From Candidatus Dadabacteria bacterium (GTDB lineage Bacteria > Desulfobacterota_D > UBA1144 > Nemesobacterales > Nemesobacteraceae), in NCBI GenBank assembly GCA_009837205.1, contig VXTZ01000026.1, positions 83,629 through 147,628 on the forward strand: a stretch of 64,000 nt of DNA, in the 5' to 3' direction. Below the pieces are notes generated by a model. That model worked only from the letters and a program-made list of their open reading frames with translations, ran no database searches and was not told the origin of the DNA. Numbering within the stretch: position 1 is the stretch's first letter; the number at the start of each line of letters is the position of its first letter. Below are positions 1 to 46,683 of the stretch, piece by piece. The translations under genes were made by a program, and so were the position numbers.

Positions 1-1
1 T

Positions 2-352
2 GAGAAGCTCAGACGCTGGAGCGCCTCAGGTGCGGGATTTCATCCCGAGGCCGTAAAAGAGTATGTTCGCTGTTTCAGCGATCCGCGCGCAATCCATGCA
101 AGCTGCGAAGACTACAGGGCCGCGGCCTCCATAGATATTGTCCATGATGAAGAAGATATGGACGCCAGGATAACGTGTCCACTTCTTGCCCTCTGGGGCG
201 GAAAGGGGTTCATTCACAGAACCTATGACGTGCTTAGCGTATGGAGGGAAAAAGCGCTCAGCGTTTCGGGAAAACCGCTTGACTGCGGCCACTTTGTCCC
301 GGAGGAAAAACCCCGGGAGACCTCCGCGGAACTGCTGTCATTTTTCAGGTAA
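2..352 (+). CDS. alpha/beta-fold hydrolase, C-terminal fragment (N-terminus lies upstream of window)
   Basis: Frame is open from nt 2. Translation '...[34 protein letters not shown]...[10 protein letters not shown]' matches the C-terminal cap and catalytic-His region of haloacetate-dehalogenase/epoxide-hydrolase-type alpha/beta hydrolases. GC-rich relative to what follows. Confidence 0.6.
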
Positions 353-685
353 GGGGTTTCAGCAAGGAGAAACCGTAAGGTTTTTGCTGAAAATTATTTA
401 CGGTTCAACCGTTCTACATCAAGCCCGCTTTGGTATTGATATGTCTCGTAAGGTTGTAATCATAACAATTCCCCATACCGTTTTGATATCTTAGACGCTT
501 TACTTTCTCTTTTTTCTAAAATATAATTTCAATCGCTTACAACTGAAGAGGTCCCGCTACGTCGGGTCTCTGTGAATATAAAACCCGATTCCAGGGAAAT
601 AAGCAGAACGTCCAAATCTCTTTGGTTGTAAGCAAGGCCCGGCACCCACGTGTGTCGGAGATCAGCTTACTGGAGGTATTAATTC

Positions 686-1102
686 ATGAGGAAACACCGC
701 CTGATTTATGGATTTTCTGTTTTAGCCGTTGCAGTAGTATTGGGATTGTTCTATTACGGCACGAAGAACGATGCTAAACAATCTAATTCACACATTATTC
801 CATCCGATTTGAATTCCACCCCCTCTCTTTCCAATAAAGTGTCGGAATCGGTGCAGAAGGATAAGCCTCAGGTTTCCATTAAAAATAAGTCTCTTAAGCA
901 GCCGGAACATCGACCGGTTAAGCAAGAACCCCAGTTCCAGCCTGACACGGTTGATGGAAATCCAATAATCCTTACAAAAAAGAAAGTCGTGCTCGAAGAC
1001 GGGAAAGAAATTATGGTCTTTGAAAATGTTCCTGATTCATGGAGGACAGAGACCGAAGTACATTTTGATAAGGGGGGCAAACCTCATGTTACACATCGCT
1101 AA
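686..1102 (+). CDS. hypothetical membrane-anchored protein (N-terminal TM helix, Pro/Gln-rich linker, small C-terminal domain)
   Basis: ORF with an N-terminal hydrophobic segment (FSVLAVAVVLGLFYY). AT-rich. Directly upstream of and overlapping the metalloprotease start. No recognisable family. Confidence 0.4.
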   Translation: MRKHRLIYGFSVLAVAVVLGLFYYGTKNDAKQSNSHIIPSDLNSTPSLSNKVSESVQKDKPQVSIKNKSLKQPEHRPVKQEPQFQPDTVDGNPIILTKKKVVLEDGKEIMVFENVPDSWRTETEVHFDKGGKPHVTHR

Positions 1103-2393
1103 CAAATGGATTTTCACTCTATCCTTTTTCTTCATTATGGCCGTATTCCTCCCGGTTCAGGAGAGTGTGGCAACAACATTTAGAGCAATATACGCTGATG
1201 CTCCAGGTACAGGGTTTTATGATGAAACCCATATGACTGATCAGCTTGCCCAGGGCAATATTATCGGTACAACCGTCGGAGAAGTAAGAAGAAACGCATT
1301 CGAAGCTGCTCTTGATATTCTAGAAGAAAATATTTCAACTAACAACAATGAAGGAGTTGTAATACAGGCGTCGTTTGATGATTTAGGAGCGCCAAGCTCA
1401 AGAGGTATAGTTCTTGGTGGAGCTCTCCCAGCAGATCATGTTTTTTTAGGACTAGTTCCTGGGTTACCAGTTTGTTCAGCATCATCTTTTTTTCAAACAC
1501 CACCACAGTGTTCGGTTCCTTTACTCAACGAGCCGGGGGTTGTGGGAGTGCCTTTAGCGCTTGCTGAACATATTACGGGACAAGGATTTAACGGAAATAA
1601 TCCAGATATTCTAATAAAATTCAATGAAAGAGCTCCATTTTATTTTGGAACAGAAACCACGCCTTTTAATTACGTCAATTTTGTTCTAGTAGCAGCGCAT
1701 GAACTATTCCATGGTCTGGGGTTTTACGATTCATTTCGAGAGGATGGTAGTTTTATTGCATTAACGGAACTGGGTGGCAGTCTGGTTCCTGTGTTTTCTT
1801 ATTACGACATAAATCTATACTCAGAAAGTGAAGAAGACTTGCTTGTAAATCTTTCGCAGTCTGAAAGGCGGAACGCTATTACCTCAGTAGATGGTCTCTC
1901 ATGGGATGGGACGCTAGGAGGCCTATTTGATACTAGTTGTGGACAGCTTATGGGCGAAGCTTTAATGGATTATTACCCATCTGCCGTAGATAAAGAAGGC
2001 CGACCTCAACTCTATGCGCCTAGACCTTACGAGCCAGGGAGTTCTATCTCACACTTTGTTCAAACTTCTAAAGACTTAATGAAGCCTTCAGTCGATGGTG
2101 TAGAGCATGCTGACTTCACGCTTGGGGTGCTTTTGGACATGTTGTGGGTTGTAGGAGATATTTCCCCTGACCGATTAGAAGTTCTTGAAGATTGCCTCAC
2201 TAGTTCTGGAGGAGAAACAGAGCCAGAATCTACACCTGCTCCTGATACACCAGGGCAATCAAGTGGCGGGGGCAGTGGTGGTGGATGTACTATTGCGGAA
2301 ACTCAAGCCATGTCGCAAAACACTATTTTAAACCTGCTTTTAATCCTGCTTACTATGGTTCCTTGCTTTCAACTATACAGGAGAGGAGGTTAA
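1086..2393 (+). CDS. secreted zinc metalloprotease (HExxHxxGxxD metzincin-like) with C-terminal Gly-rich/Cys + TM + Arg sorting tag
   Basis: Start chosen at the ATG preceded by an AAGGGGGG RBS. Signal peptide MLHIANKWIFTLSFFFIMAVFLPVQESVA. Zinc-binding motif HELFHGLGFYD. C-terminus ...GGGSGGGCTIAETQ..ILNLLLILLTMVPCFQLYRRGG. Confidence 0.7.
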   Translation: MLHIANKWIFTLSFFFIMAVFLPVQESVATTFRAIYADAPGTGFYDETHMTDQLAQGNIIGTTVGEVRRNAFEAALDILEENISTNNNEGVVIQASFDDLGAPSSRGIVLGGALPADHVFLGLVPGLPVCSASSFFQTPPQCSVPLLNEPGVVGVPLALAEHITGQGFNGNNPDILIKFNERAPFYFGTETTPFNYVNFVLVAAHELFHGLGFYDSFREDGSFIALTELGGSLVPVFSYYDINLYSESEEDLLVNLSQSERRNAITSVDGLSWDGTLGGLFDTSCGQLMGEALMDYYPSAVDKEGRPQLYAPRPYEPGSSISHFVQTSKDLMKPSVDGVEHADFTLGVLLDMLWVVGDISPDRLEVLEDCLTSSGGETEPESTPAPDTPGQSSGGGSGGGCTIAETQAMSQNTILNLLLILLTMVPCFQLYRRGG

Positions 2394-2630
2394 GGTTGTT
2401 ACGAAAAACAAAAGCATCCTTTAAGTAAGAGGTGGTGATCAGCGCAAGCTTGTAAGGGATTAAATGTAGGCAAACATTTACCCGTCGGAGAAGTTGCGAA
2501 GGTAATTCAGTGAATGACAAGCAGCCGTGGCAAGTTAAACTGGATGATTCAATGAGAGTAATATCATATTCCGCTTTGGCGATGTCTACAACGTTGACTT
2601 GATTGACTACCGCTAGAAAGAGGCAGCAAT

Positions 2631-2933
2631 ATGACGATAAACAGTCCGCCGCATCCCGACCGCAGCATCAGGGAAAACTGCCTAGCCCCACTTGGGTTGA
2701 ACGTTACCGAAGCGGCAAAAATTTTGGGTGTTGCTCGTCACACGCTTTCGCGCATACTGAACGGCCATGTGGCAATTTCACTGGAGATGGCTATCAGGCT
2801 TGAGAAGGCGGGATGGTCCAATGCCGAGTTCTGGCTACGTCGCCAGACCACTTACGACCTGGTGCAGGCACGCAAGGGCGAAGACCGGATCAATGTTGAG
2901 TTCTACCGGTCGCAGCGGACGGAGAAGGAATGA
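2631..2933 (+). CDS. higA: HigA-family antitoxin (XRE HTH)
   Basis: [77 protein letters not shown] matches the HigA 'NPPHPGE...GLS..LA..LGV.R...S.I.NG...IS..MA.RL...G.S.EFWLNLQ..YDL' consensus. Confidence 0.8.
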
Positions 2934-3095
2934 ATACCGAACATGAGCACAGCAAAAAGCCCGTAGCAATACTTAGCCGGATATAGGTTCAGGTACCAAG
3001 AAAGCCAGTTGGTCTGTAAGCTGAGTTCTGTTAAATACAGTCATTCATGTCCTTGTAAAATATATCTCTGCAGACATGGGGACGGGGAGTTACAA

Positions 3096-3332
3096 ATGCC
3101 GTTAGAAAAACCACTTGCATATTTCAGGAAGCACCAGGAAAAATTTGCCCGGGAGCACCATGGGAAATTCGTGGTTATCTATGAAGAAGATGTAGAGGGC
3201 TTCTACAAGAGCGAATTGGAAGCATACACAGTCGCAATAAAAAAACATCCGGACGGATTGTTTCTTCTTCGGCAATGCCTAAGGCTCGAAGAAGAAAACG
3301 TGGCTGTGTTCCACTCTAGGATTGCTGGCTAA
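3096..3332 (+). CDS. hypothetical small protein (possible TA-associated; alternative GTG/ATG start at 3009)
   Basis: ORF between higA and vapB. MPLEKPLAYFRKHQEKFAREHHGKFVVIYEEDVEGFYKSELEAYTVAIKKHPDGLFLL resembles small DUF5678-like proteins often found next to TA loci (low certainty). Confidence 0.35.
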   Translation: MPLEKPLAYFRKHQEKFAREHHGKFVVIYEEDVEGFYKSELEAYTVAIKKHPDGLFLLRQCLRLEEENVAVFHSRIAG

Positions 3333-3506
3333 CTGTCTCCGGAAACGAATCATTCGTCATTCACCATCAAGTTTCCAGGTGCGGCTGCAGTACTTGAAAA
3401 AATACTTGCCTGACTTTCCAAATTCCGTCACGCCTATATATTGATTTTGTAAAAGAGATGGAGAAAGGGAAATCTTGACTCACAAGGAAGGATTGCAACA
3501 AATGAG

Positions 3507-3782
3507 ATGGCCATGCACATCGTAAAAATTTTTAAGAGCGGCCGTAGCCAAGCTATCCGCATACCGAAAGATTTCGCCTATGAAGGCGTAAAGGAGCTGA
3601 CCGTGCGGAAAATCGGCGAAAAACTGATCTTGGAACCAGTACGCAAGTCTTGGCTGACTCTGTATGACGAGATCGAGCCGTTAGGAACAGATGACAACTT
3701 TCTGGCTGATCGACCTGACTTGTTCGCCATTGACGAAAGCAGGGTGAAGTTTAAATCTGTTCGCATAAGCCGTAACAGATGA
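3507..3782 (+). CDS. vapB: AbrB/MazE-fold antitoxin, VapB-like
   Basis: MAMHIVKIFKSGRSQAIRIPKDFAYEGVKELTVRKIGEKLILEPV is the classic SpoVT/AbrB swapped-hairpin antitoxin N-terminus (K.F.SGNSQAVRIPKEF...). Confidence 0.75.
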   Translation: MAMHIVKIFKSGRSQAIRIPKDFAYEGVKELTVRKIGEKLILEPVRKSWLTLYDEIEPLGTDDNFLADRPDLFAIDESRVKFKSVRISRNR

Positions 3783-3997
3783 TCGTTTCTGTTATAACCG
3801 GTGACTGCATATTACGACTGAATTCCGAGTGCGCGAGTTTCAAGTTAATTGACGCAGTAAAAACGTTTCTCGCAGTCATCACCAAAACGCTTTTCACACT
3901 CTCCAAGAATGTGAGAAGTGTATACTACGAATCCCCGTCGTTATTGAGATTGAGAAGTGGACCTCAGAAAAAACAGGTTGCAATCCTTATTCTTTAG
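3779..3997 (+). pseudogene. short ORF start-overlapping vapB stop (ATGA); probable truncated/decayed toxin gene
   Basis: A 72-aa ORF in the position where a ~130-aa PIN/VapC or MazF toxin is expected. No PIN acidic quartet is recognisable. The frame closes after 72 codons and no continuation is found in other frames. Confidence 0.3.
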
Positions 3998-4059
3998 TGT
4001 AGTTTTCTGAAACGAAATACGACCGGATATGTGGAATTAATATTCTAGGTGACACAGCC

Positions 4060-4488
4060 ATGCAGACCACTGTATTAGATGTAGCCGAGTATATACTTCA
4101 GAAGAAAAAACCAATCCCTGCCATGAAATTGCAGAAGTTGGTCTATTACTGCCAAGCTTGGTCATTGGTATGGGAAGACAGGCCCATTTATAAAAACAGG
4201 ATAGAAGCTTGGGCTCATGGTCCTGTAGTTGTCGACCTGTATTACGCCCACAGAGGTGAATATATGTTGGAAAGCGTCGGAGGCAATCCTTCAATTCTTT
4301 CCCAATCAGATATTGAGACCATTGATGCTGTTTTGGAATATTACGGCGAGAAATCTTCACAATGGCTGTCGGATCTCACCCATCAGGAACGCCCATGGCA
4401 AAAAGCTCGCAGGTCCCTGCCGAGAGGGCAGCGGGGAAGTGAGGAAATAACGCTGGCATCCATGGCGGAATATTACGGTTCTCTCTGA
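4060..4488 (+). CDS. Panacea-domain (DUF4065, COG3600/GepA/SocA-like) antitoxin
   Basis: KLQKLVYYCQAWSLVWEDRPIYKNRIEAWAHGPVVVDLYY and the C-terminal LTHQERPW match the DUF4065/Panacea core (KLQKLLYY.Q.W.L......LF.E.FEAW..GPV...LY ... THxExPW). Confidence 0.75.
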   Translation: MQTTVLDVAEYILQKKKPIPAMKLQKLVYYCQAWSLVWEDRPIYKNRIEAWAHGPVVVDLYYAHRGEYMLESVGGNPSILSQSDIETIDAVLEYYGEKSSQWLSDLTHQERPWQKARRSLPRGQRGSEEITLASMAEYYGSL

Positions 4489-4505
4489 TAGGTGGACATA
4501 GATGC

Positions 4506-4961
4506 ATGGTCAAAAAACGCAACGGTCGAAAACGTCCGAAGAGAAAAGCGAATCCTGATCCCAAAAAATCCCCACAAATTCAAACCGGCGTTCAGGAGTC
4601 GTTTCAAGGGCACAAAATAAGATGGTCTTTTTCTATTCTGGATATGGGCGGTCCTTTCGGGTGGTCAAAATGTTCGGTCTCCGTTCTGAATGATGTGCTA
4701 AAGCCACGACTCAGCAATTTTGAAACTATGACTTGGGCAGAAATTGAATCCCACAGGCACCATTCTATTCCAACAGGAGATCTTTCAACACAGGCCCAAA
4801 AACGTCTTTCTGACAAGAAGCTAAGCGATGTGGATGAGGTTTTTTCCTTGGCAATAGGTAGCAAAGAGAGAATTATAGGGATTCGTGACCGTGACGTCTT
4901 TAAATTGCTTTGGTGGGATCCGAAGCATGAAGTCTGCCCATCAACGAAAAGACATACATAA
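4506..4961 (+). CDS. uncharacterised 151-aa protein, polybasic N-terminus; candidate toxin partner of the Panacea antitoxin
   Basis: Starts 17 nt after the DUF4065 gene on the same strand. N-terminus KKRNGRKRPKRKANPDPKK. C-terminal ERIIGIRDRDVFKLLWWDPKHEV is reminiscent of the RelE/ParE terminal beta-hairpin. No known family assigned. Confidence 0.5.
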   Translation: MVKKRNGRKRPKRKANPDPKKSPQIQTGVQESFQGHKIRWSFSILDMGGPFGWSKCSVSVLNDVLKPRLSNFETMTWAEIESHRHHSIPTGDLSTQAQKRLSDKKLSDVDEVFSLAIGSKERIIGIRDRDVFKLLWWDPKHEVCPSTKRHT

Positions 4962-5158
4962 TCCTCAGGGCCGATGACTGACAGGCTGGTCGGAAGCCGG
5001 TTCTCTACAATAGATTTACAATCGCCCCTTCAACCACTTATCAAGAACGGCGTAGTTCTACAGGACTGTCCTGTCATCCCAATTCATATAGAGCGTACTG
5101 TCAGTTCCCCGTTCAAACGAGTTCTTTATAATTCTCCTACTTCGTATAAATTATCATC

Positions 5159-6118
5159 ATGTCGAAAATGCTTTTCGTGATGGACCCGATCGAGTCCATA
5201 AACATAAACAAGGACACCACTTTCGTCATAATGCTCGAATGCCAGGCAAGAGGGCACGAAATTCGCTACTGCGAACTCAAGGATCTTTTCGTAAAGGACT
5301 CCGAGGCATGGGCGGATTCAACCAAGCTTCGTCTCGAGAGAAAGAGTGATTACTACTCAAAGGGATTAACGGGAACTTCTCCGCTTGATGACTTCGACAT
5401 CGTATGGATGAGAAAAGATCCCCCCTTCAACATGGACTATATCTACTCGACCTACATACTAAACAGGGTTGACGAGTCCGAAACGCACGTGATAAACCAC
5501 CCGGCCGGTATACGGGAATCTAACGAGAAGATGTACAGCCTTAATTTCGCCGACTACATCCCCCCTACTCTGGTTTCAAAAGACATAGAAAAACTGAAGG
5601 AATTTCTCTATGAGACCGGCAACGAGATTGTGGTAAAACCGCTTGACGGCTACGGCGGGGAGGGAATTTTTCTCGTAAGGGCCGATGACCCTAATCTCAA
5701 CGTGATACTCGAGAGCATAACCGACTTCGGGCGGACCTACGTGATGGCCCAGAAATTCATAAAAGAGGTTTCGCAAGGAGACAAAAGGGTTATAATTCTA
5801 AACGGCCAGCCCATAGGAGCCGTGATGAGGGTAGCCGCAAAGGGAGAATTCAGAAGCAATTTCCACTCCGGAGGATATCCCGAGAAAACCACTCTTACGG
5901 AAAGGGACCTGGAAATATGCGACGGCCTCAGACAGAAACTCTTAGAGGACCGGCTCTATCTGGTCGGAATCGACATAGTCGGAGGGTATCTGACCGAAGT
6001 CAACACCACTAGCCCGACATGCGTTCAGGAAATAAACTTTTTCAGCGGGGTAAAGCTTGAATCGCAGATAGTCGATTTTGCTGAGAGTATTATCCGCGGG
6101 ACTCCAGAGAGCCTTTAG
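5159..6118 (+). CDS. gshB: glutathione synthetase (ATP-grasp)
   Basis: MSKMLFVMDPIESININKDTTFVIMLECQARGHEI... is collinear with E. coli GshB (KLGIVMDPIANINIKKDSSFAMLLEAQRRGYEL...KPLDGMGG...TEINVTSPTC). Confidence 0.9.
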   Translation: MSKMLFVMDPIESININKDTTFVIMLECQARGHEIRYCELKDLFVKDSEAWADSTKLRLERKSDYYSKGLTGTSPLDDFDIVWMRKDPPFNMDYIYSTYILNRVDESETHVINHPAGIRESNEKMYSLNFADYIPPTLVSKDIEKLKEFLYETGNEIVVKPLDGYGGEGIFLVRADDPNLNVILESITDFGRTYVMAQKFIKEVSQGDKRVIILNGQPIGAVMRVAAKGEFRSNFHSGGYPEKTTLTERDLEICDGLRQKLLEDRLYLVGIDIVGGYLTEVNTTSPTCVQEINFFSGVKLESQIVDFAESIIRGTPESL

Positions 6119-6156
6119 AAAATTCCTAGGCGGGAAGCTAACGCAGGACTCTAACA

Positions 6157-6453
6157 ATGAAAATATCCAAAGAAGATGTGCTTAACACGGCCGAGCTTGC
6201 AAGGCTCGAGTTTGATGACGAGACGCTTTCGAAGTTCACCCGTCAGCTCGGGGACATCCTCATCCATATAGATGAGCTTGCCGAGCTTGACACGAAAAAC
6301 GTGGAGCCCACATCGCATGTGCTTGAACTCTCAACTCCTTTCCGAAAAGACGAGGTAAATCAGCTAATAACTGCTGAAGACGCCCTTAGCAACGCACCCA
6401 GCAAAGAAAACGATTTCTTCACGGTTCCAAAAGTCATAGAGGACCAGAGCTGA
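6157..6453 (+). CDS. gatC: Asp-tRNA(Asn)/Glu-tRNA(Gln) amidotransferase subunit C
   Basis: [46 protein letters not shown] is the GatC consensus. Immediately upstream of gatA. Confidence 0.9.
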
Positions 6454-6457
6454 CCCA

Positions 6458-7921
6458 ATGTCCATTCCAAGAACCATAAAGGAAGCAGCCGCGTTAATAG
6501 AGAGAAAAGAGGCCTCCCCGGTGGAACTCGCCGAACTTTTTCTCGAGCGCATATCCTCCGAGGACGCAAAAATAAACTCTTACATCACCGTCTGGAAAGA
6601 AGCGGCCTTGGAGGCCGCCAGAGAGGCGGAAAAAGAGATATCCGAAGGAAACTATCTGGGACCTCTCCATGGGGTCCCGATAGCGCTTAAGGATATTTTC
6701 GTGACAAAGGACTCGCGTACCACCTGCGGCTCGAAAATGCTGCGGGATTTCATCGCTCCCTACAATTCCACCGTGGCCGAAAAACTCATGGCGAGCGGTT
6801 CCGTAGTACTCGGGAAAAACAACATGGACGAGTTCGCCATGGGATCTTCAAACGAAACATCTTACTTCGGACCGGTAAGAAACCCCTGGGACACCGACAG
6901 GGTTCCGGGAGGATCAAGCGGAGGAAGCGCCGCCGCCACAGCGGCAAATCTGTGCGTCGCGTCAGTCGGAACAGACACCGGGGGTTCCATAAGGCAGCCC
7001 GGCTCCCTCTGCGGAGTAGTGGGAATGAAACCCACCTACGGAAGGGTAAGCCGCTACGGCATGATTGCATTCGCTTCTTCCCTCGATCAGGCGGGACCGC
7101 TTGCGAAAACCGTTGAGGACGCAGCCATAATCCTCTCCTCCATAGCAGGCCATGACCCGATGGATTCAACATCCGTAAACCTTCCGACCGCTGATTACGC
7201 AAGCGCGCTCAATACGGACATAAAGGGGCTACGGGTCGGCATACCGAAGGAATACTTCATCTCGGGGATGGATCCCGAAGTGGAAGAATCCGTCCGCAAA
7301 GCTATCGCCGAACTTGAAACCATGGGAGCGGAAATTGTGGAGATTTCGCTTCCTCACTCCCGCTATACGGTCTCAACCTACTATATAATAGCCCCTTCGG
7401 AAGCAAGTTCGAACCTAGCAAGGTACGACGGAGTAAGATACACATACCGCTGTGAAAATGCGGAAACCCTGAGAGATCTGTTTTTCAGAAGCCGCTCGGA
7501 AGGGTTCGGAGACGAAGTGAAGAGAAGAATAATGCTTGGAACCTACGCCCTTTCCACAGGCTACTATGACGCCTATTACCTGAAAGCCCAGAAGGTAAGA
7601 ACCCTTATAATAAGGGATTTTGACAGCGCCTGGGAAAAAGTTGACGTGATAGCGAGCGCCACTTCTCCTGAAACCGCTTTCAGAATAGGCGAAAAAGCAG
7701 ACGATCCCCTTAAAATGTACCTATCCGACATATTTACCATTCCCTGCAACATAGCAGGACTCCCCGGAATATCAGTCCCCTGCGGATTCAGTTCAGAAAA
7801 GCTTCCGATAGGGCTTCAGATAATGGGAAAGCCATTCGACGAGCAGACAGTGCTCAACGTTGCGTACGCTTACGAGCAAAGCACGAAGTGGTACGAAAAA
7901 GAAGTGTCCCCTCTTGGATAA
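6458..7921 (+). CDS. gatA: Asp-tRNA(Asn)/Glu-tRNA(Gln) amidotransferase subunit A (amidase signature)
   Basis: 487 aa with the amidase signature [10 protein letters not shown] and catalytic-Ser region. gatC-gatA order. Confidence 0.95.
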
Positions 7922-8004
7922 TCGCAACCCAGGATACACCTCAGCCCAAAAACATGTTATCATCGAAATATGAAGCTTCTTTTCCCGGTACAGGAGGACG
8001 GGTT

Positions 8005-8169
8005 ATGAGCAAAGAAAAAAAGTGTACCGTATGTGGCAAGCCTTCTCCCGATTTCATATGCGAGTCATGCAAGTCGAATATTCAGGCTGAGGCCGTGGGC
8101 AAGAAATCAAAGATGGAAAAGCAGGTGAAGGTAGGCGGTTCAATAGCCGATAAGCGTTCAAAAGAATAG
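8005..8169 (+). CDS. small zinc-ribbon protein (CxxC...CxxC)
   Basis: MSKEKKCTVCGKPSPDFICESCKS... preceded by an AGGAGG RBS. The longer ORF-track version (from 7888) overlaps the gatA 3' end and is probably not the real start. Confidence 0.4.
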   Translation: MSKEKKCTVCGKPSPDFICESCKSNIQAEAVGKKSKMEKQVKVGGSIADKRSKE

Positions 8170-8174
8170 TAGCT

Positions 8175-9026
8175 CTATTCTTCCCAGATTTCGAGGGCGA
8201 TCCTGTATACGCTGTTCTTCAACGCCCCAGAGGATTCGCAGACCGTGCGTACTGCATCACTGAGAGCGGTCCCGCTCTCTTTCATTGCGCGAAGCGTCCT
8301 TTGCACTTCTTCTATTGAGATCTCTCCTCGCCCTTCCCCGTTGCCCTCTAAAACAATTGTCACTTCCCCCTTAATCGATTCTTTCTTTGAAAGAATCGAT
8401 ACCACCTCCGAAACTGATCCCCGGATTACCTCTTCGTAAAGTTTTGTCATTTCCCTAGCAATGCAGATATTCCTGTCGCCGAGAATTTCCAGCATAAGAC
8501 TCAAGGTGCGTGAAAGTCTTCTGGCGGACTCGTAAAAAACCATGGTGTATGGGTAGGATTTTACGTCCTTTAAAAGCTCTTTCTTCTTGCCTATGGTCTT
8601 CGGGAAAAAACCGAGAAAAAGAAAACTGTCTGTGGGAAGTCCCGAAACAACAAGTGCAGAGAGGACAGCCGAAGGACCGGGTATGGGAACTACTTCTATA
8701 TTGTTTTCAATTGAGAGATTTACAAGCCTCCACCCAGGGTCGGAAACCGAAGGAGTTCCGGCATCGGAAACCAGCGCCACGTCTTTGCCGTCTTTGAGTC
8801 TTTCAAGCAGCTTGGGCGATTTTTCAACTTCATTATGTTCATGATAGCTAGTGAGAGGGGTTTCGATCCCGTACCGGGTAAGGAGTTTTTTTGTGTTTCT
8901 CGTATCCTCGCACGCTATAACGTCGCAATCCTTAAGAACGTTTACAGCCCGCAAAGTTATGTCTTCAAGATTTCCTATCGGGGTAGAGACTACGAAGAGT
9001 TTTCCAAACATACTGTTATTCGGCAA
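8175..9026 (-). CDS. rsmI: 16S rRNA (cytidine1402-2'-O)-methyltransferase
   Basis: GKLFVVSTPIGNLEDITLRAVNVLKDCDVIACEDTR is the RsmI/tetrapyrrole-methylase N-terminus. 283 aa. Start may be the internal ATG at 9011. Confidence 0.9.
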   Translation of the reverse strand: MPNNSMFGKLFVVSTPIGNLEDITLRAVNVLKDCDVIACEDTRNTKKLLTRYGIETPLTSYHEHNEVEKSPKLLERLKDGKDVALVSDAGTPSVSDPGWRLVNLSIENNIEVVPIPGPSAVLSALVVSGLPTDSFLFLGFFPKTIGKKKELLKDVKSYPYTMVFYESARRLSRTLSLMLEILGDRNICIAREMTKLYEEVIRGSVSEVVSILSKKESIKGEVTIVLEGNGEGRGEISIEEVQRTLRAMKESGTALSDAVRTVCESSGALKNSVYRIALEIWEE

Positions 9027-9036
9027 ATTCCGCTTT

Positions 9037-10056
9037 CTACGTTTCGTATATATCGCGAAGTTCTTTCAGAATATCATCTAATAGGTTGCGGAACTTTTTC
9101 CTATTTACCTTGACACTTATTTCCGGATGAGCAAGCTCTACTCGATGGTTTCCGTGCTTTCCTGTAAAGTTGCTCAGTTTTGAATCACCAGTCTTTGAAT
9201 CATGGCTTTCCAGTTTCCTTTCCATAGCCGTGTACAGGGCCAAATACAATTTGTAACGGTAATAATCGTCTTTGTTCCTATCGAATCCTAATGCCTCAAC
9301 GAGTCGGAGAGTCGTTCTCTTGTTTTTTTCTATGTCAATCTTAATATCCTCCTCGAGGCCGTTGATCAATTTCTGTAAACGATCAGCTTTTACTCTTAAC
9401 TTCTCATCGTCCGTAGGAGCTTCAGCAACTAGCGTTGCACTCACAATTGGCTCTGGTTGGATATAGATCATGCGTCCATCTATATCGAAAAAGCAGGAAC
9501 GGCTAAAAACCTCTTTAATTGGGTCTTTACTTCTCTGTTCTATTCTTATGGCAGTAAGAATCATATCGACAAACTGATCGACACTATCTTCCTCTTCGGG
9601 CCATGTACTATCTGAAGTTTTCATTGTCATTATAATTTCTCTGCCAGAGAGGCCTCCCTGTAAAAATTCCTCACTTATAATGAAACAAGTATTTTCATCC
9701 ATTATGGTCTCGCATGGAATTTCTTGCTCTATTACGACAAAAAGAGAGGAGCCGTCTTTTCGGGAATTAACTTCCTCCTTCTCTACCTCTTCAACTTTGT
9801 GCCTAAAAGAAGGGGAAATTGAATAGTGATGGAACGGACTGTATTCCTCAAAGTAAGATTTCAAGTCTGAGACTACTGTCGCTCTTGATTGTTCCCGCTT
9901 GGCAATTAATAGGGGTGCAACCTTCATTTCAGCTTGTAAAAATATCCTAGGAAATTTGAATACATGAGTGTAGCAACGCCTCTTAATTTTGCACTTTGTT
10001 GGATGCCCATTCAATCCCCCTATATACATACGTTTAAGCCCAGCTTTCGTTAGCAT
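9037..10056 (-). CDS. hypothetical 339-aa protein, low-GC; C-terminal RVELAH (Rx4H, HEPN-like) motif
   Basis: Long ORF with no recognisable family. Its GC is visibly lower (~40%) than neighbouring core genes. Lies between rsmI and the tRNA-Ser region. The C-terminal 'GNHRVELAHPE' fits the Rx4-6H HEPN motif (speculative). Confidence 0.5.
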   Translation of the reverse strand: MLTKAGLKRMYIGGLNGHPTKCKIKRRCYTHVFKFPRIFLQAEMKVAPLLIAKREQSRATVVSDLKSYFEEYSPFHHYSISPSFRHKVEEVEKEEVNSRKDGSSLFVVIEQEIPCETIMDENTCFIISEEFLQGGLSGREIIMTMKTSDSTWPEEEDSVDQFVDMILTAIRIEQRSKDPIKEVFSRSCFFDIDGRMIYIQPEPIVSATLVAEAPTDDEKLRVKADRLQKLINGLEEDIKIDIEKNKRTTLRLVEALGFDRNKDDYYRYKLYLALYTAMERKLESHDSKTGDSKLSNFTGKHGNHRVELAHPEISVKVNRKKFRNLLDDILKELRDIYET

Positions 10057-10949: not shown

Positions 10950-11076
10950 AAGTTTTTTTCTCCAGTTTTATCTAAGGGTATATGCCTCTTTCATATCGTG
11001 GGATATAAAGAAGGGTTACTCTCTCCTCTTTCCACAAAAAATTTTTTATTTTCAGCAAGTTATAGATTAACAGTTG

Positions 11077-11159
<83 letters not shown>

Positions 11160-41034: not shown

Positions 41035-42054
41035 ATGATAGTAGTAATGAAGCAAAAGGCGACCAAGGAAGATATAGACAAGGTCAAATCCGTTATAAAG
41101 GAACTTGGCTATTCGCCGCATCCGATCGAGGGAATTCTCAGGACTGTCATCGGAGTGGTCGGAGACGATAGAGGAAAGCCACATGACCTCGACGTTCTCA
41201 AACAGCTACAGGGAGTCGAAAAGGTCGTTCCTGTGCTTCAGCCCTACAAGCTAACAAGCAGGGAAGTGAACGATGAAACCTCCGTTTTCAATGTGGAAGG
41301 CGTTACAGTAGGGGACAGGAATATCCCAATAATCGCAGGACCGTGCTCGGTTGAAAGCGAAGAACAGATAATGACAATTGCAGCTTCCATAAAAGATTCA
41401 GGGGCGTCAATGCTCAGAGGCGGCGCGTTTAAGCCCAGAACTTCTCCCTATTCTTTCCAGGGTCTTGGAAAAGAGGGACTGGAACTTCTCATCAAGGCAA
41501 AAGAAGTGACCGGACTGCCCATAGTAACCGAAATAATGAGCCCGGATGATCTTGAACTGGTCGAGGAATACGCGGATGTGCTTCAAATCGGAGCGAGAAA
41601 TTCCCAAAACTACTCGCTTTTAAGACATGTCGGCAAATCAAAGAAGGCCGTCCTGCTAAAACGGGGGATGTCAACAACCATAAACGAATTCCTCATGTGC
41701 GCAGAGTATATACTGTCGGAGGGCAACAGTAACGTAATGCTCTGCGAACGCGGGATAAGGACCTTTGAGACTGCGACCAGAAATACTTTTGACCTGAACG
41801 CTATCCCGGTACTCAAGGAAAAGACCCACCTGCCTGTTTTCGCCGACCCTAGCCATGGAACCGGCTACTGGCAGTACGTAATTCCAGTAACCTTAGCCTC
41901 AATAGCCGCCGGAGCGGACGGAGTAATTGTCGAGGTTCATAACAACCCGGAGACCGCCGTTAGTGACGGAGCTCAGTCGCTTAAACCGAAAACATTCAAA
42001 AACCTGATGGAAAAAGCTGCCCCCGTTGCCGAAGCCATTGGAAGAAGCATTTAG
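41035..42054 (+). CDS. 3-deoxy-7-phosphoheptulonate (DAHP) synthase, type I-beta with N-terminal regulatory domain
   Basis: KdsA-like barrel ([12 protein letters not shown]...ADPSHGTG) with an N-terminal ~70-aa ferredoxin-like extension. Confidence 0.9.
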
Positions 42055-42068
42055 AGATTTCTCGGATC

Positions 42069-42671
42069 TCATAAGGAAATCAGGACTTTTCTTCCACTGA
42101 GAGTCAGTTTTCCCTCGCAGAAAAGCCTTATGGCTTCAGGCAGTATCCTGTATTCCTCAGCATGGATTTTCTCAAGCAGAGTCTCTTCCGTATCTTCCTC
42201 CGTAACCGGAACAACGGCCTGAAGAATAATGGGACCCGCGTCAACTTCCTCCCTCACGAAGTGGACTGTGCAACCCGTTTGTTTCACTCCGTAGTCAAGT
42301 GCCTGTCTTACTGAATTTGTTCCCGGAAAAGAAGGAAGCAGGGAAGGATGAATGTTGATGATACGGTTCGCGAAACGGCCTAAGAAATAAGGAGTAAGTA
42401 TCCTCATAAACCCGGCAAGTACGACAAGGCCTATGTCATATCTGTCGATTTTCGCGACTATCTGTCTTTCGAACTCTTCCCTTGATTCAAAATCCCTGCC
42501 TTTTACGAGCTCCACGGGAATGCCGTGTTTCCTAGCCCTCTCAATCGCCATGACTCCAAGAGTATCACAGACAACCACGGCTATATTTGCGGATTCTATG
42601 CCGGAATCTATTACCGCCTGAAGATTTGTTCCGCTTCCGGAAACAAACACGGCAACGTTGGTCTTTGACAT
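42069..42671 (-). CDS. purN: phosphoribosylglycinamide formyltransferase
   Basis: MSKTNVAVFVSGSGTNLQAVID...INIHPSLLP is the PurN consensus. The ORF-track N-terminal extension (to 42722) overlaps the 5S rRNA and is rejected. Confidence 0.9.
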   Translation of the reverse strand: MSKTNVAVFVSGSGTNLQAVIDSGIESANIAVVVCDTLGVMAIERARKHGIPVELVKGRDFESREEFERQIVAKIDRYDIGLVVLAGFMRILTPYFLGRFANRIINIHPSLLPSFPGTNSVRQALDYGVKQTGCTVHFVREEVDAGPIILQAVVPVTEEDTEETLLEKIHAEEYRILPEAIRLFCEGKLTLSGRKVLISL

Positions 42672-42712
42672 CGCAGGCACCGGAAACTTGAGAAAGCAAG
42701 GGAAGAAAAAAA

Positions 42713-42825
42713 GGGCAGCCACCTACTTTCCCACTCCTGAAAGGAGCAGTATCATCGGCCTATAAGGACTTAACTTCCGGGTTCGGGATGGGACCGGGTG
42801 CTTCCCCTTCAGCATAGCCACCCTA
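42713..42825 (-). rRNA. 5S ribosomal RNA (solitary)
   Basis: Reverse complement ...GGGAAGCACCCGGTCCCATCCCGAACCCGGAAGTTAAGTCCTTATAGGCCGATGATACTGCTCCTTTCAGGAGTGGGAAAGTAGGTGGCTGCCC. This matches the universal 5S loop C (CCCAUGCCGAACUCAGAAGUGAAAC) and the helix IV/V (GCCGAUGGUAG...GAGAGUAGG) blocks. It is followed by a T8 run. Confidence 0.85.
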
Positions 42826-42870
42826 GAAAGAAGAAATTACCACTGAAAAAAATAATGTCAAGCTAAAATA

Positions 42871-44355
42871 TCAGTCAGTATTAAAACCCCGTATTGGAAG
42901 AGCTCTTCCGAACCTTTTGAGCTTCTTAATGGCCTTTACCTCGATCTGCCTTATTCTCTCGCGGGTAACGTTCAATTTTTTCCCTATTTCTTCAAGGGTG
43001 TATTCCTTGTCCTCATCTATACCAAAACGCATTTTAACGACTCCTTCCTCCCCGTTACTGAGGTTGGTGCAGAGCGCGTTGCGCATGATCCGGTTCAATT
43101 CTTTGGTTTCGAGCATGTCAAGCGGAGAAGTGGAAGCCGGGTCCGAGATAATATCCATCAGCCTGCAATCGTCCTCGCCAATCGGGGACTCCAGGGAAAT
43201 CGGGTCACGCGACACCTTCATGATCTTCAAGACCTTATCAAGAGGTATGTCCATTGCCTCGGCTATCTCTTCCGGCCTGGGTTCCCTCCCTAATTTCTGC
43301 ATCAGGGATCTAGAGATCTTGTTCAGCCTGTTTATATTTTCGGTCATGTGAACGGGAATCCTTATAAGACTTCCCTGATCGGCTATTGCACGTGTAATTG
43401 CTTGCTTTATCCACCATGTGGCGCAGGTTGAAAATTTGTATCCCATTCCATGTTCGAACTTTTCAACCGCTTTCATCAACCCCATATTGCCTTCTTGAAC
43501 CAGGTCGAGAAACGGCAACCCTCTGTTAACGTATTTTCTCGCTATACTGACTACGAGCCTGAGGTTGCACTCGATAAGTGTTTTTCTGGCTTTCTTAGTA
43601 GCCTTCTTTGCTCTTTCAAACCTTCTAAGCACCTTTTTAAGAGAAGCGATTTCCTCCTCGGAATATTCAGATTTCGAACCATTGCCAATCGAATCGTCTG
43701 AACCATCCATCATGCAGTCACAATCCCCGCCCTCAATCCTGTCCACATATTCGACGGCCAGGTTGTATATCCTGTTGGCCTGCGTAGAGGAGAAATCGAT
43801 TTCGTCAAGAAGTTCTACGGTCCGTTCGTTATTCTTTCTGATTCGTTTAGAGATCTTGGCTCTTTCGGTATTTGAAAGAGTTGAAGTATCAAGTTTTTTT
43901 CTCAGTTCTTCGGTCTCAGCAAAAAGTTCTCTGATTGGAAGAAAGTTCCTCGCGGAATTTCTATATGTTTCGCCGTCAGCGGGGAATTCTACGTCCTCGC
44001 CTTGGTAGCCTGCACCGAGTGCCCCTTCTTTTATCTCTTCTTCGAGCTTGAGAACCTTTTTCATCATGAAGGGGTTCTCTATTATCATTCTTGCGATTAT
44101 TTTTTTGCCTTTTTCAATCTGTCTTGCTATCTCAACCTCTTCCTCCTTGGAAAGGAGGGAGTGCTGCGCAATAGCGAGAATGTACGATCTTATAGGGTCT
44201 TGGTCGGAATCATTGCTCTTTACGTGTTTGAGCTTGTCTTCCGCTCGAGAATCAGACGGGGCATTTTGAAAACTCTGTGAGGACTCAGAGAATTCCCCTT
44301 CGTCCTGCCCGTCGATTTCGCTCCTCAACCCGTTAGTCTCGTCGTTTGGATTCAA
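42871..44355 (-). CDS. rpoD: RNA polymerase sigma-70
   Basis: Regions 1.2-4.2 are recognisable (e.g. ...[18 protein letters not shown]..., [27 protein letters not shown]). Acidic N-terminal region. Confidence 0.95.
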
Positions 44356-46145
44356 CTTGCAGTTCCTCTTATGGTCTTTTCCATACTCACCAGATCCCTG
44401 TATTGCTCAACAAGTTTTCTTTCAAGGGTTTTATCAGAAGAATCACGCTGCTTGCGGATTCTTTCTATTACTTCATTACGCTTAAAAGCTATATTTCTCA
44501 GTTCAAGCTCCTTCACGCAATCGTTTAGTATTTTCTCCGAAGTCGTGTCGTCTATCAAATCATCCGAAGAAAAAATTAACTCGCTCAGCAGTTGCTGCAT
44601 CTCGATTTTCTCAAAAGAACTCATCAGGGAGGAAACTTCGGTAAACTCCCCTTCACCCACACGCTTGAGAATAACCTTTAAATCGCCATTTTCAAAATCC
44701 CTACCAATATTCTCAATCTTTTCGGCGCTCATCAGGTGGGGGAATTTAAGCAGTATCCTCACAATTTCTCTCTCATGAATGCTTTTTTCCGGAATCAAGG
44801 TCGTCGGTGCAAGCGACCCGCGGTTTCTTCCCGGATTCGAGGTTTTTACCAGAGAGAGAAACTCAGACTCCCTTATCCCGAAAAGCCCCGTTGCCTTGGA
44901 AACAGCTTCAGCTCTTCGGACCGGGTCTTTTATTTTTGAAACCAAGTCCACAAGAAATTTTATCGACTCTCCGGAAGACATTTTCTTTTCCCTGTACCTT
45001 GCAAAAGTGTCGTCAATAATAAAATCCGAGACATCAACGGCGGCCGCGATCAGCTCGGCGAGGCTCTCAGGCCCATGCTCCTCCAGATAATCATCGGGGT
45101 CGAGGCCATCGGGAATACGGCAAATACTTGAAGAAATCCCCTGCTCAAGAAGAATCTCTCCGGCCCGGACGGCGGAACGTATCCCAGCGGTATCACCGTC
45201 GTAGACAATCACCACCTCCTCGCAGAAACGTCGCAGAAATCTGGCGTGCTCATTCGTAAAGGCCGTTCCCAAGGTGGCAACCACGTTGCGTATTCCATTT
45301 GCGTAGAGCTTTATGAAATCCATGTAGCCTTCAACCAAAACGGCTTTCCGTTTTCTTCCGATTTCACTTTTCGAGTGGTAGAGTCCGTAGAGAACGCTCC
45401 TTTTGTCGAAAACAGGGGATTCAGGGGAATTCATGTATTTCGGCTGTTTGGATTCGTCTTCGCTCAGAGTTCTGCCGCCAAAACCGCAAATTCGTCCTGT
45501 TATCTCGTTTATGGGGAAAATAATTCTGTTTCGGAACCGATCGTAGTGACCGCTTCCGCTCTCCCTCGCAACAACAAGACCAAGCTCTTCGAGTTCCTTG
45601 ACACCGATATTGTTTTTTGAAGCGAATTTCACAGCGGCATCCCATCTGTCGGGGGCAAAACCGAGCTTGAATTCCTCGATTATCTCCGAGCTGATTCCCC
45701 TTGATTCTAGGTACTCTCTAGCCCACGCGGAGTTTTTTGCTGAACTGCGGAGGTTCTTGCTGTAAAACGAACAGACAAGAGAATTTATCTCAAAAAACCT
45801 GGCCGAAGTGGCCTCTTTTTTCTTCTCACTTCTGGTGCGCGGACGCGGAGCCGGGAGCCTGACTCCGGCTTTCTGCGCAAGTTCCTTTAAGGCTTCGCGG
45901 AAACCTATATTGCTGTATCTCATCAGGAAGCCAAATACATCTCCTCCGGCTCCGCAGCTGAAGCAATGGAAAAAACCCTTCTCATCATTTACGTGCATGG
46001 AAGGGTTGTTGTCGTCGTGGAACGGGCAGAGCCCGATATGGTTCTTTCCAGATTTTTTAAGGGAAACAAAGCCCTGTATGACGTCTACTATGCTGAGCTT
46101 TGCCTTTATATCCGCTATCGCTGATGTGAAAGAAGAGTTCTTCAT
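44352..46145 (-). CDS. dnaG: DNA primase
   Basis: Zinc-binding [34 protein letters not shown] plus TOPRIM (LVEGYMD). rpsU-dnaG-rpoD order. Confidence 0.95.
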
Positions 46146-46214: not shown

Positions 46215-46403
46215 TTATCTTCTTTTCCTGCTTGAACTGCGTTTTTTGGCGGCAAACAGCTTCTTTTTTTTCTTTTCGCTCGGTTTTTCGTAGTATTCTC
46301 TCTTCCTTACTTCAGAAAGAACCCCACCCTTTTCAACCTGTTTCTTAAACCTTTTTAAAGCGCTGTCAATGCTTTCGCTGCTACCTACTGTTATTCCTGG
46401 CAA
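46215..46403 (-). CDS. rpsU: 30S ribosomal protein S21
   Basis: [48 protein letters not shown] is the S21 consensus. Confidence 0.9.
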
Positions 46404-46494: not shown

Positions 46495-46683
46495 CTATTT
46501 CGATTGTTTTTCCAGAAGCGGGAATTTTCCAACCATCTCACGGTTCTTTCTTATCTCTTCCTCGATTCTGCGGGCGTTTCCCTTCTCGAATTCATGGTCG
46601 TAGGGCTCCTGGGAAACCCTCTGCTCTTCCAGTCTGCTGTTCCAGGAATCCCGCCTGTTTCTGATTTCATCCACAAGTCCCAT
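46495..46683 (-). CDS. hypothetical small charged protein
   Basis: A 62-aa ORF between rpsU and the deacetylase gene. No family. Weak coding evidence. Confidence 0.3.
   Translation of the reverse strand: MGLVDEIRNRRDSWNSRLEEQRVSQEPYDHEFEKGNARRIEEEIRKNREMVGKFPLLEKQSK

Follow-up and report, generated by a model that had tools for sequence, protein, structure and literature searches.

We consider it highly probable that the 5S rRNA gene lying between rpoD and purN in the window (the whole stretch of 64,000 nucleotides analysed here) is the ribosomal 5S gene of the organism, and that throughout Candidatus Dadabacteria, a class of Thermodesulfobacteriota in the NCBI taxonomy, this gene is detached from the 16S-tRNAIle-tRNAAla-23S cluster and forms a separate transcription unit. 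The gene is presumably already marked in the NCBI annotation of Dadabacteria MAGs, so it is not the gene but its architecture that is the discovery.

The 5S rRNA gene and its neighbours in the window

The features of the locus are listed in Table 1. The original prediction had proposed a genuine solitary 5S gene on the minus strand, and the Rfam covariance search confirmed it, with a match to positions 1-120 of the 120 positions of RF00001 that scored 86.7 bits, far over the gathering score of 38 (E=4e-17). Helix I is formed by pairing of 42824-42816 with 42720-42712, and from this pairing the mature 3' end is probably at about 42713-42711. In loops C and E, the blocks CCGAACCCGGAAGUUAAG and GCCGAUGAUACU...GGGAAAGUAGG were invariant across 39 distinct Dadabacteria-type 5S sequences. 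RNAalifold analysis of 18 diverse Dadabacteria 5S sequences gave the canonical three-helix-junction fold (helices I-V) with 32 pairs, 12 of which were kept by compensatory changes on both sides, while the loops were invariant. As far as sequences can tell, compensated stems together with invariant loops are the signature of a working structural RNA and not of a relic. The z-score of the single-sequence fold was +0.88, which is not significant, as is usual for 5S, and it was left out as evidence.

Table 1 Features of the rpsU-dnaG-rpoD-5S-purN region (positions in the window)
Feature	Position	Strand	Remarks
rpsU (ribosomal protein S21)	46215..46403	-	First gene of rpsU-dnaG-rpoD operon; Pfam PF01165, 70 bits
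dnaG (DNA primase)	44352..46145	-	TIGR01391, 446 bits
rpoD (primary sigma factor)	42871..44355	-	NCBIfam RpoD models
-35 hexamer TTGACA	42856..42861	-	Invariant in 9/9 aligned relatives
Extended -10 TGgTAATTT	42834..42842	-	TG 42842-42841; TGg 42842-42840; TAATTT 42839-42834
5S rRNA gene	42710..42825	-	Rfam limits; RF00001, 86.7 bits
T7 run directly after helix I	42706..42712	-	Putative U tract of an intrinsic terminator, 3'-end determinant
Spurious 17-codon N-terminal extension of purN	42672..42722	-	GTG 42722; overlaps 5S 3' end and T run
purN (GAR formyltransferase), 200 aa	42069..42671	-	TIGR00639, 233 bits; ATG 42671-42669
aroF-type DAHP synthase gene	41035..42054	+	NF006421, 499 bits; convergent, bounds the 5S-purN unit

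The loop E region of the window 5S, set against the Rfam consensus, reads GAUGA-UACU / GGGAAAGUAGG. The form GAUGAUACU / GGGAAAGUAGG (42732-42760) was seen at all Dadabacteria 5S loci and at L044, L050, and L053. When 185,579 species representatives were searched with a 39-nt pattern that holds this variant, all matches came from genomes of Dadabacteria type or from the Bacterium 3DAC lineage, which is unrelated to them, and judged by this pattern the loop E form is a rare 5S variant common to two distant groups.

The order on the minus strand is rpsU, dnaG, rpoD, 5S, and purN, and thus the 5S gene is located downstream (3') of the rpsU-dnaG-rpoD operon and not upstream of it, as had been assumed at first. 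A protein identical to the RpoD of the window is named in NCBI as a sigma-70 family factor of Candidatus Dadabacteria, and the DAHP synthase gene adjoins purN in most relatives too. As originally stated, the window is without 16S and 23S, and this result was obtained both by the Rfam scan and by blastn with Dadabacteria 16S and 23S sequences. The only other RNA at the gathering threshold in the 64 kb was tRNA-Ser(tga) at 11076-11159, and no tandem repeats were found in the window. Between a polysaccharide-deacetylase-like gene and rpsU there is an ORF of 62 aa (46495-46683, minus strand) without a Pfam match, and at the same position the examined relatives have an ORF as well (57-64 aa), likewise with no recorded Pfam hit; given this positional recurrence, it may encode a real small protein.

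Mechanical ORF calling gave purN a GTG start and a length of 217 aa (42069..42722). The additional 17 aa had been suspected to be spurious, with the true start at 42671, and three lines of evidence agree with this. All PurN homologues start at the residue equivalent to MSKTN and none has the extension, the TIGR00639 alignment begins at residue 5 of the 200-aa form, and the public gene calls contain exactly the 200-aa PurN. Moreover, the length of the T run differs among relatives, so the frame of the extension shifts.

Conservation of the locus and the predicted 5S promoter

The rpoD-5S-purN locus was found in approximately 145 related contigs, with PurN identities of 38-97% to that of the window. 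We examined the rpoD neighbourhoods of relatives with RpoD identities of 95, 91, 88, 73, 66, 56, 48, and 48%, plus two with 47-48%, and all of them had a full-length 5S gene (83-96 bits), with purN following closely in the same orientation. The neighbourhood on the rpoD side was found to be more variable. In L009, a gene for a 576-aa RTX-repeat protein is located between rpoD and 5S, and in L011, L012, L129, and L130, the gene of a XerC-like integrase lies there on the opposite strand, but in all five the 5S gene remains with purN.

The inserted genes themselves were identified as follows. The protein in L009 (11676-13406) carries RTX calcium-binding repeats (Pfam PF00353, 253 bits). The integrase is a XerC/XerD-like tyrosine recombinase with a Phage_integrase domain and a SAM-like N-terminal domain (L011 11662-12519, L012 11605-12483, L129 11608-12486, and L130 11987-12508); its gene occurs in deeper-branching clades, is absent in the clade of the window, and is truncated in L130. 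Other insertions lie farther away. L009 has a Peptidase_M78 and DUF4411 pair and a DUF772 gene inserted upstream of rpsU (5925-7480). In the close relative L006, HTH-domain genes and a DDE transposase (PF07592, ISAZ013 family) interrupt the conserved uppS-ctpB neighbourhood (2321-5303), and in the 95%-identical relative L005, a cadherin-like/fibronectin-III repeat protein of more than 2,548 aa replaces dxr-uppS upstream of ctpB (1-4220).

Upstream of the window 5S gene, the -35 and -10 hexamers of Table 1 are separated by 16 nt, and the flanks around these elements have otherwise diverged in the aligned relatives. For the statistics of promoter and T run, we compared 82 non-redundant Dadabacteria-type loci with 8 23S-linked controls. 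TTGAC[A/T] starting 35-41 nt upstream of 5S was present in all 82 loci but in 0/8 controls. A -10 element TAnnnT, with T1, A2, and T6 invariant, was likewise present in 82/82 loci, the spacer was 16 nt in 80 of the 82, and the TGn of an extended -10 was found in 30. Between the end of the -10 hexamer and the mature 5' end of 5S there are 7-13 nt. The original prediction had placed a promoter of the gene's own in 42826-42870, and the conserved footprint at 42861-42834 bears this out at the level of sequence: we infer a sigma-70-type promoter dedicated to 5S. A simple promoter scan missed it, with a -10 rule that needed 4 of 6 matches, and the comparative footprints were relied on instead; apart from the 5S promoter read by hand, nothing promoter-like was detected on the minus strand of 42300-43300.

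The same region could be read in another way, in which 5S would be the 3' tail of the rpsU-dnaG-rpoD transcript, released by RNase, and the TTGACA and TAnnnT motifs would be weak or serve another purpose. The stop codon of rpoD (TGA, 42873-42871) is only 9 nt before the -35 box of 5S, and a simple terminator scan found no terminator between them, so read-through from rpoD into 5S is probable. However, the distance between the motifs and 5S stayed fixed even where an RTX-repeat gene or an opposite-strand integrase gene has come between rpoD and 5S (L009, L011, L012, L129, and L130), and the three -10 positions that never vary are the very ones on which recognition by sigma-70 depends. In addition, stoichiometric 5S from a low-level mRNA operon is implausible given the demand for rRNA. 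We therefore regard the tail reading as improbable.

Copy number, 23S linkage, and assembly integrity

To count the 5S genes of this type, a 39-nt pattern from loop C to loop E, which was invariant in the first nine 5S genes, was searched by exact match in a collection with one genome per GTDB species and in a metagenome collection. The GTDB species collection gave 65 matches, and 61 of these were linked to purN/rpoD in the order 5S to purN (PurN 44-97% identical); one match lay directly after rpoD at the edge of its stretch. The remaining 4/65 were canonical 23S-5S arrangements, namely three operons of Bacterium 3DAC and one MAG. From the metagenome collection 51 matches were obtained, of which 36 were purN-linked (PurN 38-92% identical), 6 were truncated on the rpoD side, and 9 were of 3DAC type (23S 94-99% identical to that of 3DAC, or 5S fragments 100% identical to its 5S). 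All 23S-linked matches in both collections belonged to the 3DAC lineage. Bacterium 3DAC is an unrelated deep-branching thermophile, with an identity of only 72% between its 23S and that of Dadabacteria, so the four 23S-5S matches served as a positive control and indicated that the pattern was not biased to purN-linked copies. The 3DAC 23S had also been considered, via spurious ORFs, as a route to a Dadabacteria 23S, and this was dropped since 3DAC is unrelated.

Each of 23 Dadabacteria records with "chromosome" in the title (1.5-2.7 Mb) gave exactly one match. Several of them are closely related to the organism of the window; OZ220700.1, for example, shares 99% RpoD identity with it. These single-copy counts come from an exact pattern and not from covariance, and the sensitivity is imperfect, as the 5S variant of L129 (compensated CCCAG/CCUGG) was missed. 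Among the approximately 145 Dadabacteria-type 5S loci, none had a 23S gene beside the 5S gene.

One relative contained both parts of the rRNA gene set on one contig. L129 (NCBI GCA_942491865.1, a 477-kb contig) has the purN-linked 5S gene and the start of a 16S gene about 7.5 kb on; its synteny agrees with that of the remaining Dadabacteria loci, and the homologues of its MoeB carry the name Candidatus Dadabacteria. We analysed the stretch around its moeB as L131 (L131 7936-17169 corresponds to L129 12571-21596; RpoD 47% identical to that of the window). The order in L131 is 5S, purN, tRNA-Leu, protein genes mostly on the opposite strand, 16S (9498..7936), tRNA-Ile, tRNA-Ala, and 23S (7383..4370), with 5S located 7.5 kb upstream of 16S on the same strand. 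The 16S and 23S genes are therefore contiguous (16S-tRNAIle-tRNAAla-23S), and 5S alone is detached. Behind the 23S gene come 830 nt rich in A+T and then an alanine dehydrogenase gene; no 5S gene or remnant was detected in these 830 nt even at E<=10. About 60 nt past the 23S gene there is a palindrome with T7, which looks like the terminator of the rRNA operon. The proximity of 5S and 16S in L131 may be a trace of the local rearrangement that detached 5S. The window has no homologue of moeB or alanine dehydrogenase, so the arrangement of L131, with 5S 7.5 kb from 16S, is not valid for the window; for its sponge-associated clade, a fragmented operon is the likely state, as judged from the homology of the locus and the pattern-based single-copy counts.

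L131 is a soil-type Dadabacteria contig in which moeB adjoins 16S. Many MoeB homologues were found on contigs of 1-9 kb, which would be expected if the adjacency of moeB and 16S is common in the soil-type subclade.

The alternative that the purN-linked gene is a supernumerary (orphan) 5S alongside a canonical 23S-linked one, as in Francisella, was weighed against these counts. Orphan 5S sequences are known elsewhere (PMC3479022), the 39-nt pattern is not fully sensitive, as the L129 variant demonstrates, and two contigs (L003 and L004) break inside the 5S gene, as contigs do at repeats. But the breaks are at the edges of a universal 5S block and are accounted for by the 5S genes of other community members, the 23 chromosome-scale assemblies have one match each, 0 of the approximately 145 loci lie beside a 23S although the controls recover 23S-5S, and the 23S of L131 has no 5S behind it. 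A redundant copy would also not be expected to keep its promoter, structure, and compensatory evolution class-wide. The orphan reading is thus very improbable. The original prediction had left open an extra 5S copy or a fragmented operon; the fragmented operon is favoured by one 5S per chromosome and by the 23S without 5S in L131, and the extra copy is not.

The integrity of the junction was also checked. The exact PurN of the window is encoded on four contigs. An ENA scaffold of 89.6 kb matched the window at 100% identity across the 20.6 kb compared, and an NCBI MAG contig (GCA_009841925.1) matched it at 99.8%, sharing the junction and the exact 5S sequence. The two other contigs, both short and from the same organism, break off inside 5S, L003 at window position 42798 and L004 at 42755. 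These ends are the two edges of the loop C block that is universally conserved among 5S genes, which suggests breakage of the assembly graph at k-mers shared with the 5S genes of other community members. A chimeric join, named at the outset as a result that would have spoken against the 5S locus, or a decaying pseudogene would fit the metagenome source and the two broken contigs, but we rejected both readings as having practically no chance on the conservation data, since the same junction is present in independent assemblies, in long-read chromosome-scale MAGs, and in approximately 145 related contigs from many samples, and the 5S gene is full-length at 86.7 bits with invariant loops and compensated stems.

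Some public labels deserve mention here. L032, L040, and L062 are titled "uncultured Spirochaetia bacterium" and carry the Dadabacteria rpoD-5S-purN locus with a PurN 59-90% identical to that of the window, and MoeB P0193, labelled "Candidatus Korarchaeota archaeon", is 89% identical to a Dadabacteria (L129) protein. These four labels look wrong.

The 5S 3' end, purN, and comparison with other split rRNA genes

The run of T residues after 5S is T7 (42712-42706) and not T8, as first reported. A run of at least five T within about 25 nt after helix I was present in 70/82 loci vs 0/8 23S-linked controls, and some lineages without the T run have a long hairpin after 5S instead. In both the MFE and the centroid folds of the predicted window transcript, the G+C-rich helix I (about 9-10 bp) abuts the U7 tract. 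A scan for rho-independent terminators with a local hairpin (loop 3-8) found none; helix I is a long-range helix and not a local hairpin.

Of the 107 Dadabacteria-type loci whose sequence continues past 5S, 105 have purN within 1 kb on the same strand. Among 79 non-redundant loci, the spacer between helix I and the ATG of purN measured 12-15 nt in 10 loci (a marine clade), 21-50 nt in 34, 51-120 nt in 2, and 121-300 nt in 33. In the window, the ATG lies 38 nt beyond the 3' end that Rfam gives for 5S. The spacer is thus at most 50 nt in 44/79 loci, which leaves no room for a promoter of purN itself, and none was found in the scan, so purN would be transcribed through 5S by leaky termination. 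In the short-spacer clades, we infer that purN is expressed by read-through of 5S. The link between 5S and purN is not obligatory, as other genes separate them in L104 and L107, just as insertions separate rpoD from 5S in L009, L011, and L012.

No Shine-Dalgarno-like sequence was seen before the purN ATG in the window (42672-42709, …TTTCCGGTGCCTGCGATG), and in marine relatives the entire leader between 5S and purN is 12-15 nt of A/T. L104, with a gap of about 4 kb between 5S and purN, and L107 belong to one subclade, in which the inserted genes encode lipoprotein/signal-peptide-like products of 343 and 291 aa, which contain collagen-like G-x-x repeats, and also a protein of 865 aa.

With 5S as a separate transcription unit, the following mechanism can be proposed. 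The sigma-70-type promoter (TTGACA, 16 nt, TGnTAATTT) would place the start of the 5S transcript about 1-6 nt ahead of the mature 5' end, and the transcript would end at the U7 tract abutting helix I, so that the primary transcript would be almost the mature RNA. Leaky termination at U7 would allow expression of purN by read-through, and the rpsU-dnaG-rpoD transcripts probably also run into, and largely end at, the 5S/U-tract. The locus would then be a three-in-one module, which supplies a near-unprocessed 5S, a terminator for rpsU-dnaG-rpoD, and a promoter plus leader for purN. We put forward this combined module tentatively, as a possibility of rather less than even chance. If it is true, an enzyme of purine biosynthesis is hard-wired to an rRNA promoter, and in marine Dadabacteria the message for purN would be a 5S-purN co-transcript whose leader has 12-15 nt and no Shine-Dalgarno sequence.

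No relevant paper came up in literature searches on Dadabacteria together with 5S or unlinked rRNA genes, and for a 5S gene with its own promoter only a eukaryotic rDNA review was found, so this lineage appears to be undescribed as a case of split 5S. In eukaryotes, 5S genes stand alone and are the templates of RNA polymerase III; their transcripts start at or near the mature 5' end and stop at a T run just after the gene. These genes offer an analogy only, because the polymerase differs, the promoter lies within the gene, and the regulatory elements are not homologous.

Among bacteria, the closest case is Leptospira interrogans, in which rrs, rrl, and rrf are dispersed and a single 5S gene is unlinked (PMC6582327); the unlinked 5S is also mentioned in a passage of PMC3037291, citing Fukunaga and Mifuchi 1989. 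As in Dadabacteria, the single 5S is far from 23S and presumably transcribed on its own. Unlike in Leptospira, where 16S and 23S are also apart, the Dadabacteria contig L131 keeps 16S-tRNAIle-tRNAAla-23S and only 5S has left, and the 5S locus is fixed beside purN across the whole class. In the archaeon Thermoplasma acidophilum, 5S is at least 6 kb from 23S (PMC7761764), which resembles Dadabacteria, but there all three genes are unlinked and the transcription machinery is different. Francisella has three operons plus one unlinked 5S of 119 bp (PMC3479022), which also stands alone among protein genes; however, such orphans are additional copies or pieces that accompany intact 16S-23S-5S operons, whereas the Dadabacteria 5S appears to be the sole one. 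The common split of rRNA operons is that of 16S vs 23S-5S (PMC6582327), known from Helicobacter, Thermus, Borrelia, Rickettsia, Wolbachia, and Planctomycetes (PMC6582327; PMC7761764). These lineages share with Dadabacteria a fragmented operon with independent promoters for the pieces, but their break is between 16S and 23S and leaves 5S with 23S, and the break in Dadabacteria is between 23S and 5S.

Nothing is overturned by this finding, as unlinked 5S genes were already known in Leptospira and Thermoplasma, and it is a modest addition to the list of split rRNA operons. In practice, gene callers over-extend purN across the 5S gene, and quality checks of MAGs that expect a 5S adjacent to 23S look in the wrong place for Dadabacteria. 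The locus can also serve as a clean reference for a predicted sigma-70 promoter of Dadabacteria, defined by phylogenetic footprinting. For the biology of this uncultured and widespread lineage of sponges, ocean, soil, and subsurface, it means that the rRNA operon is probably broken throughout the class, and at an unusual place, the joint of 23S and 5S. It is also a natural case for studying how the stoichiometry of 5S is maintained in the absence of co-transcription, and whether transcription of an mRNA, that of purN, can pass through an rRNA gene.
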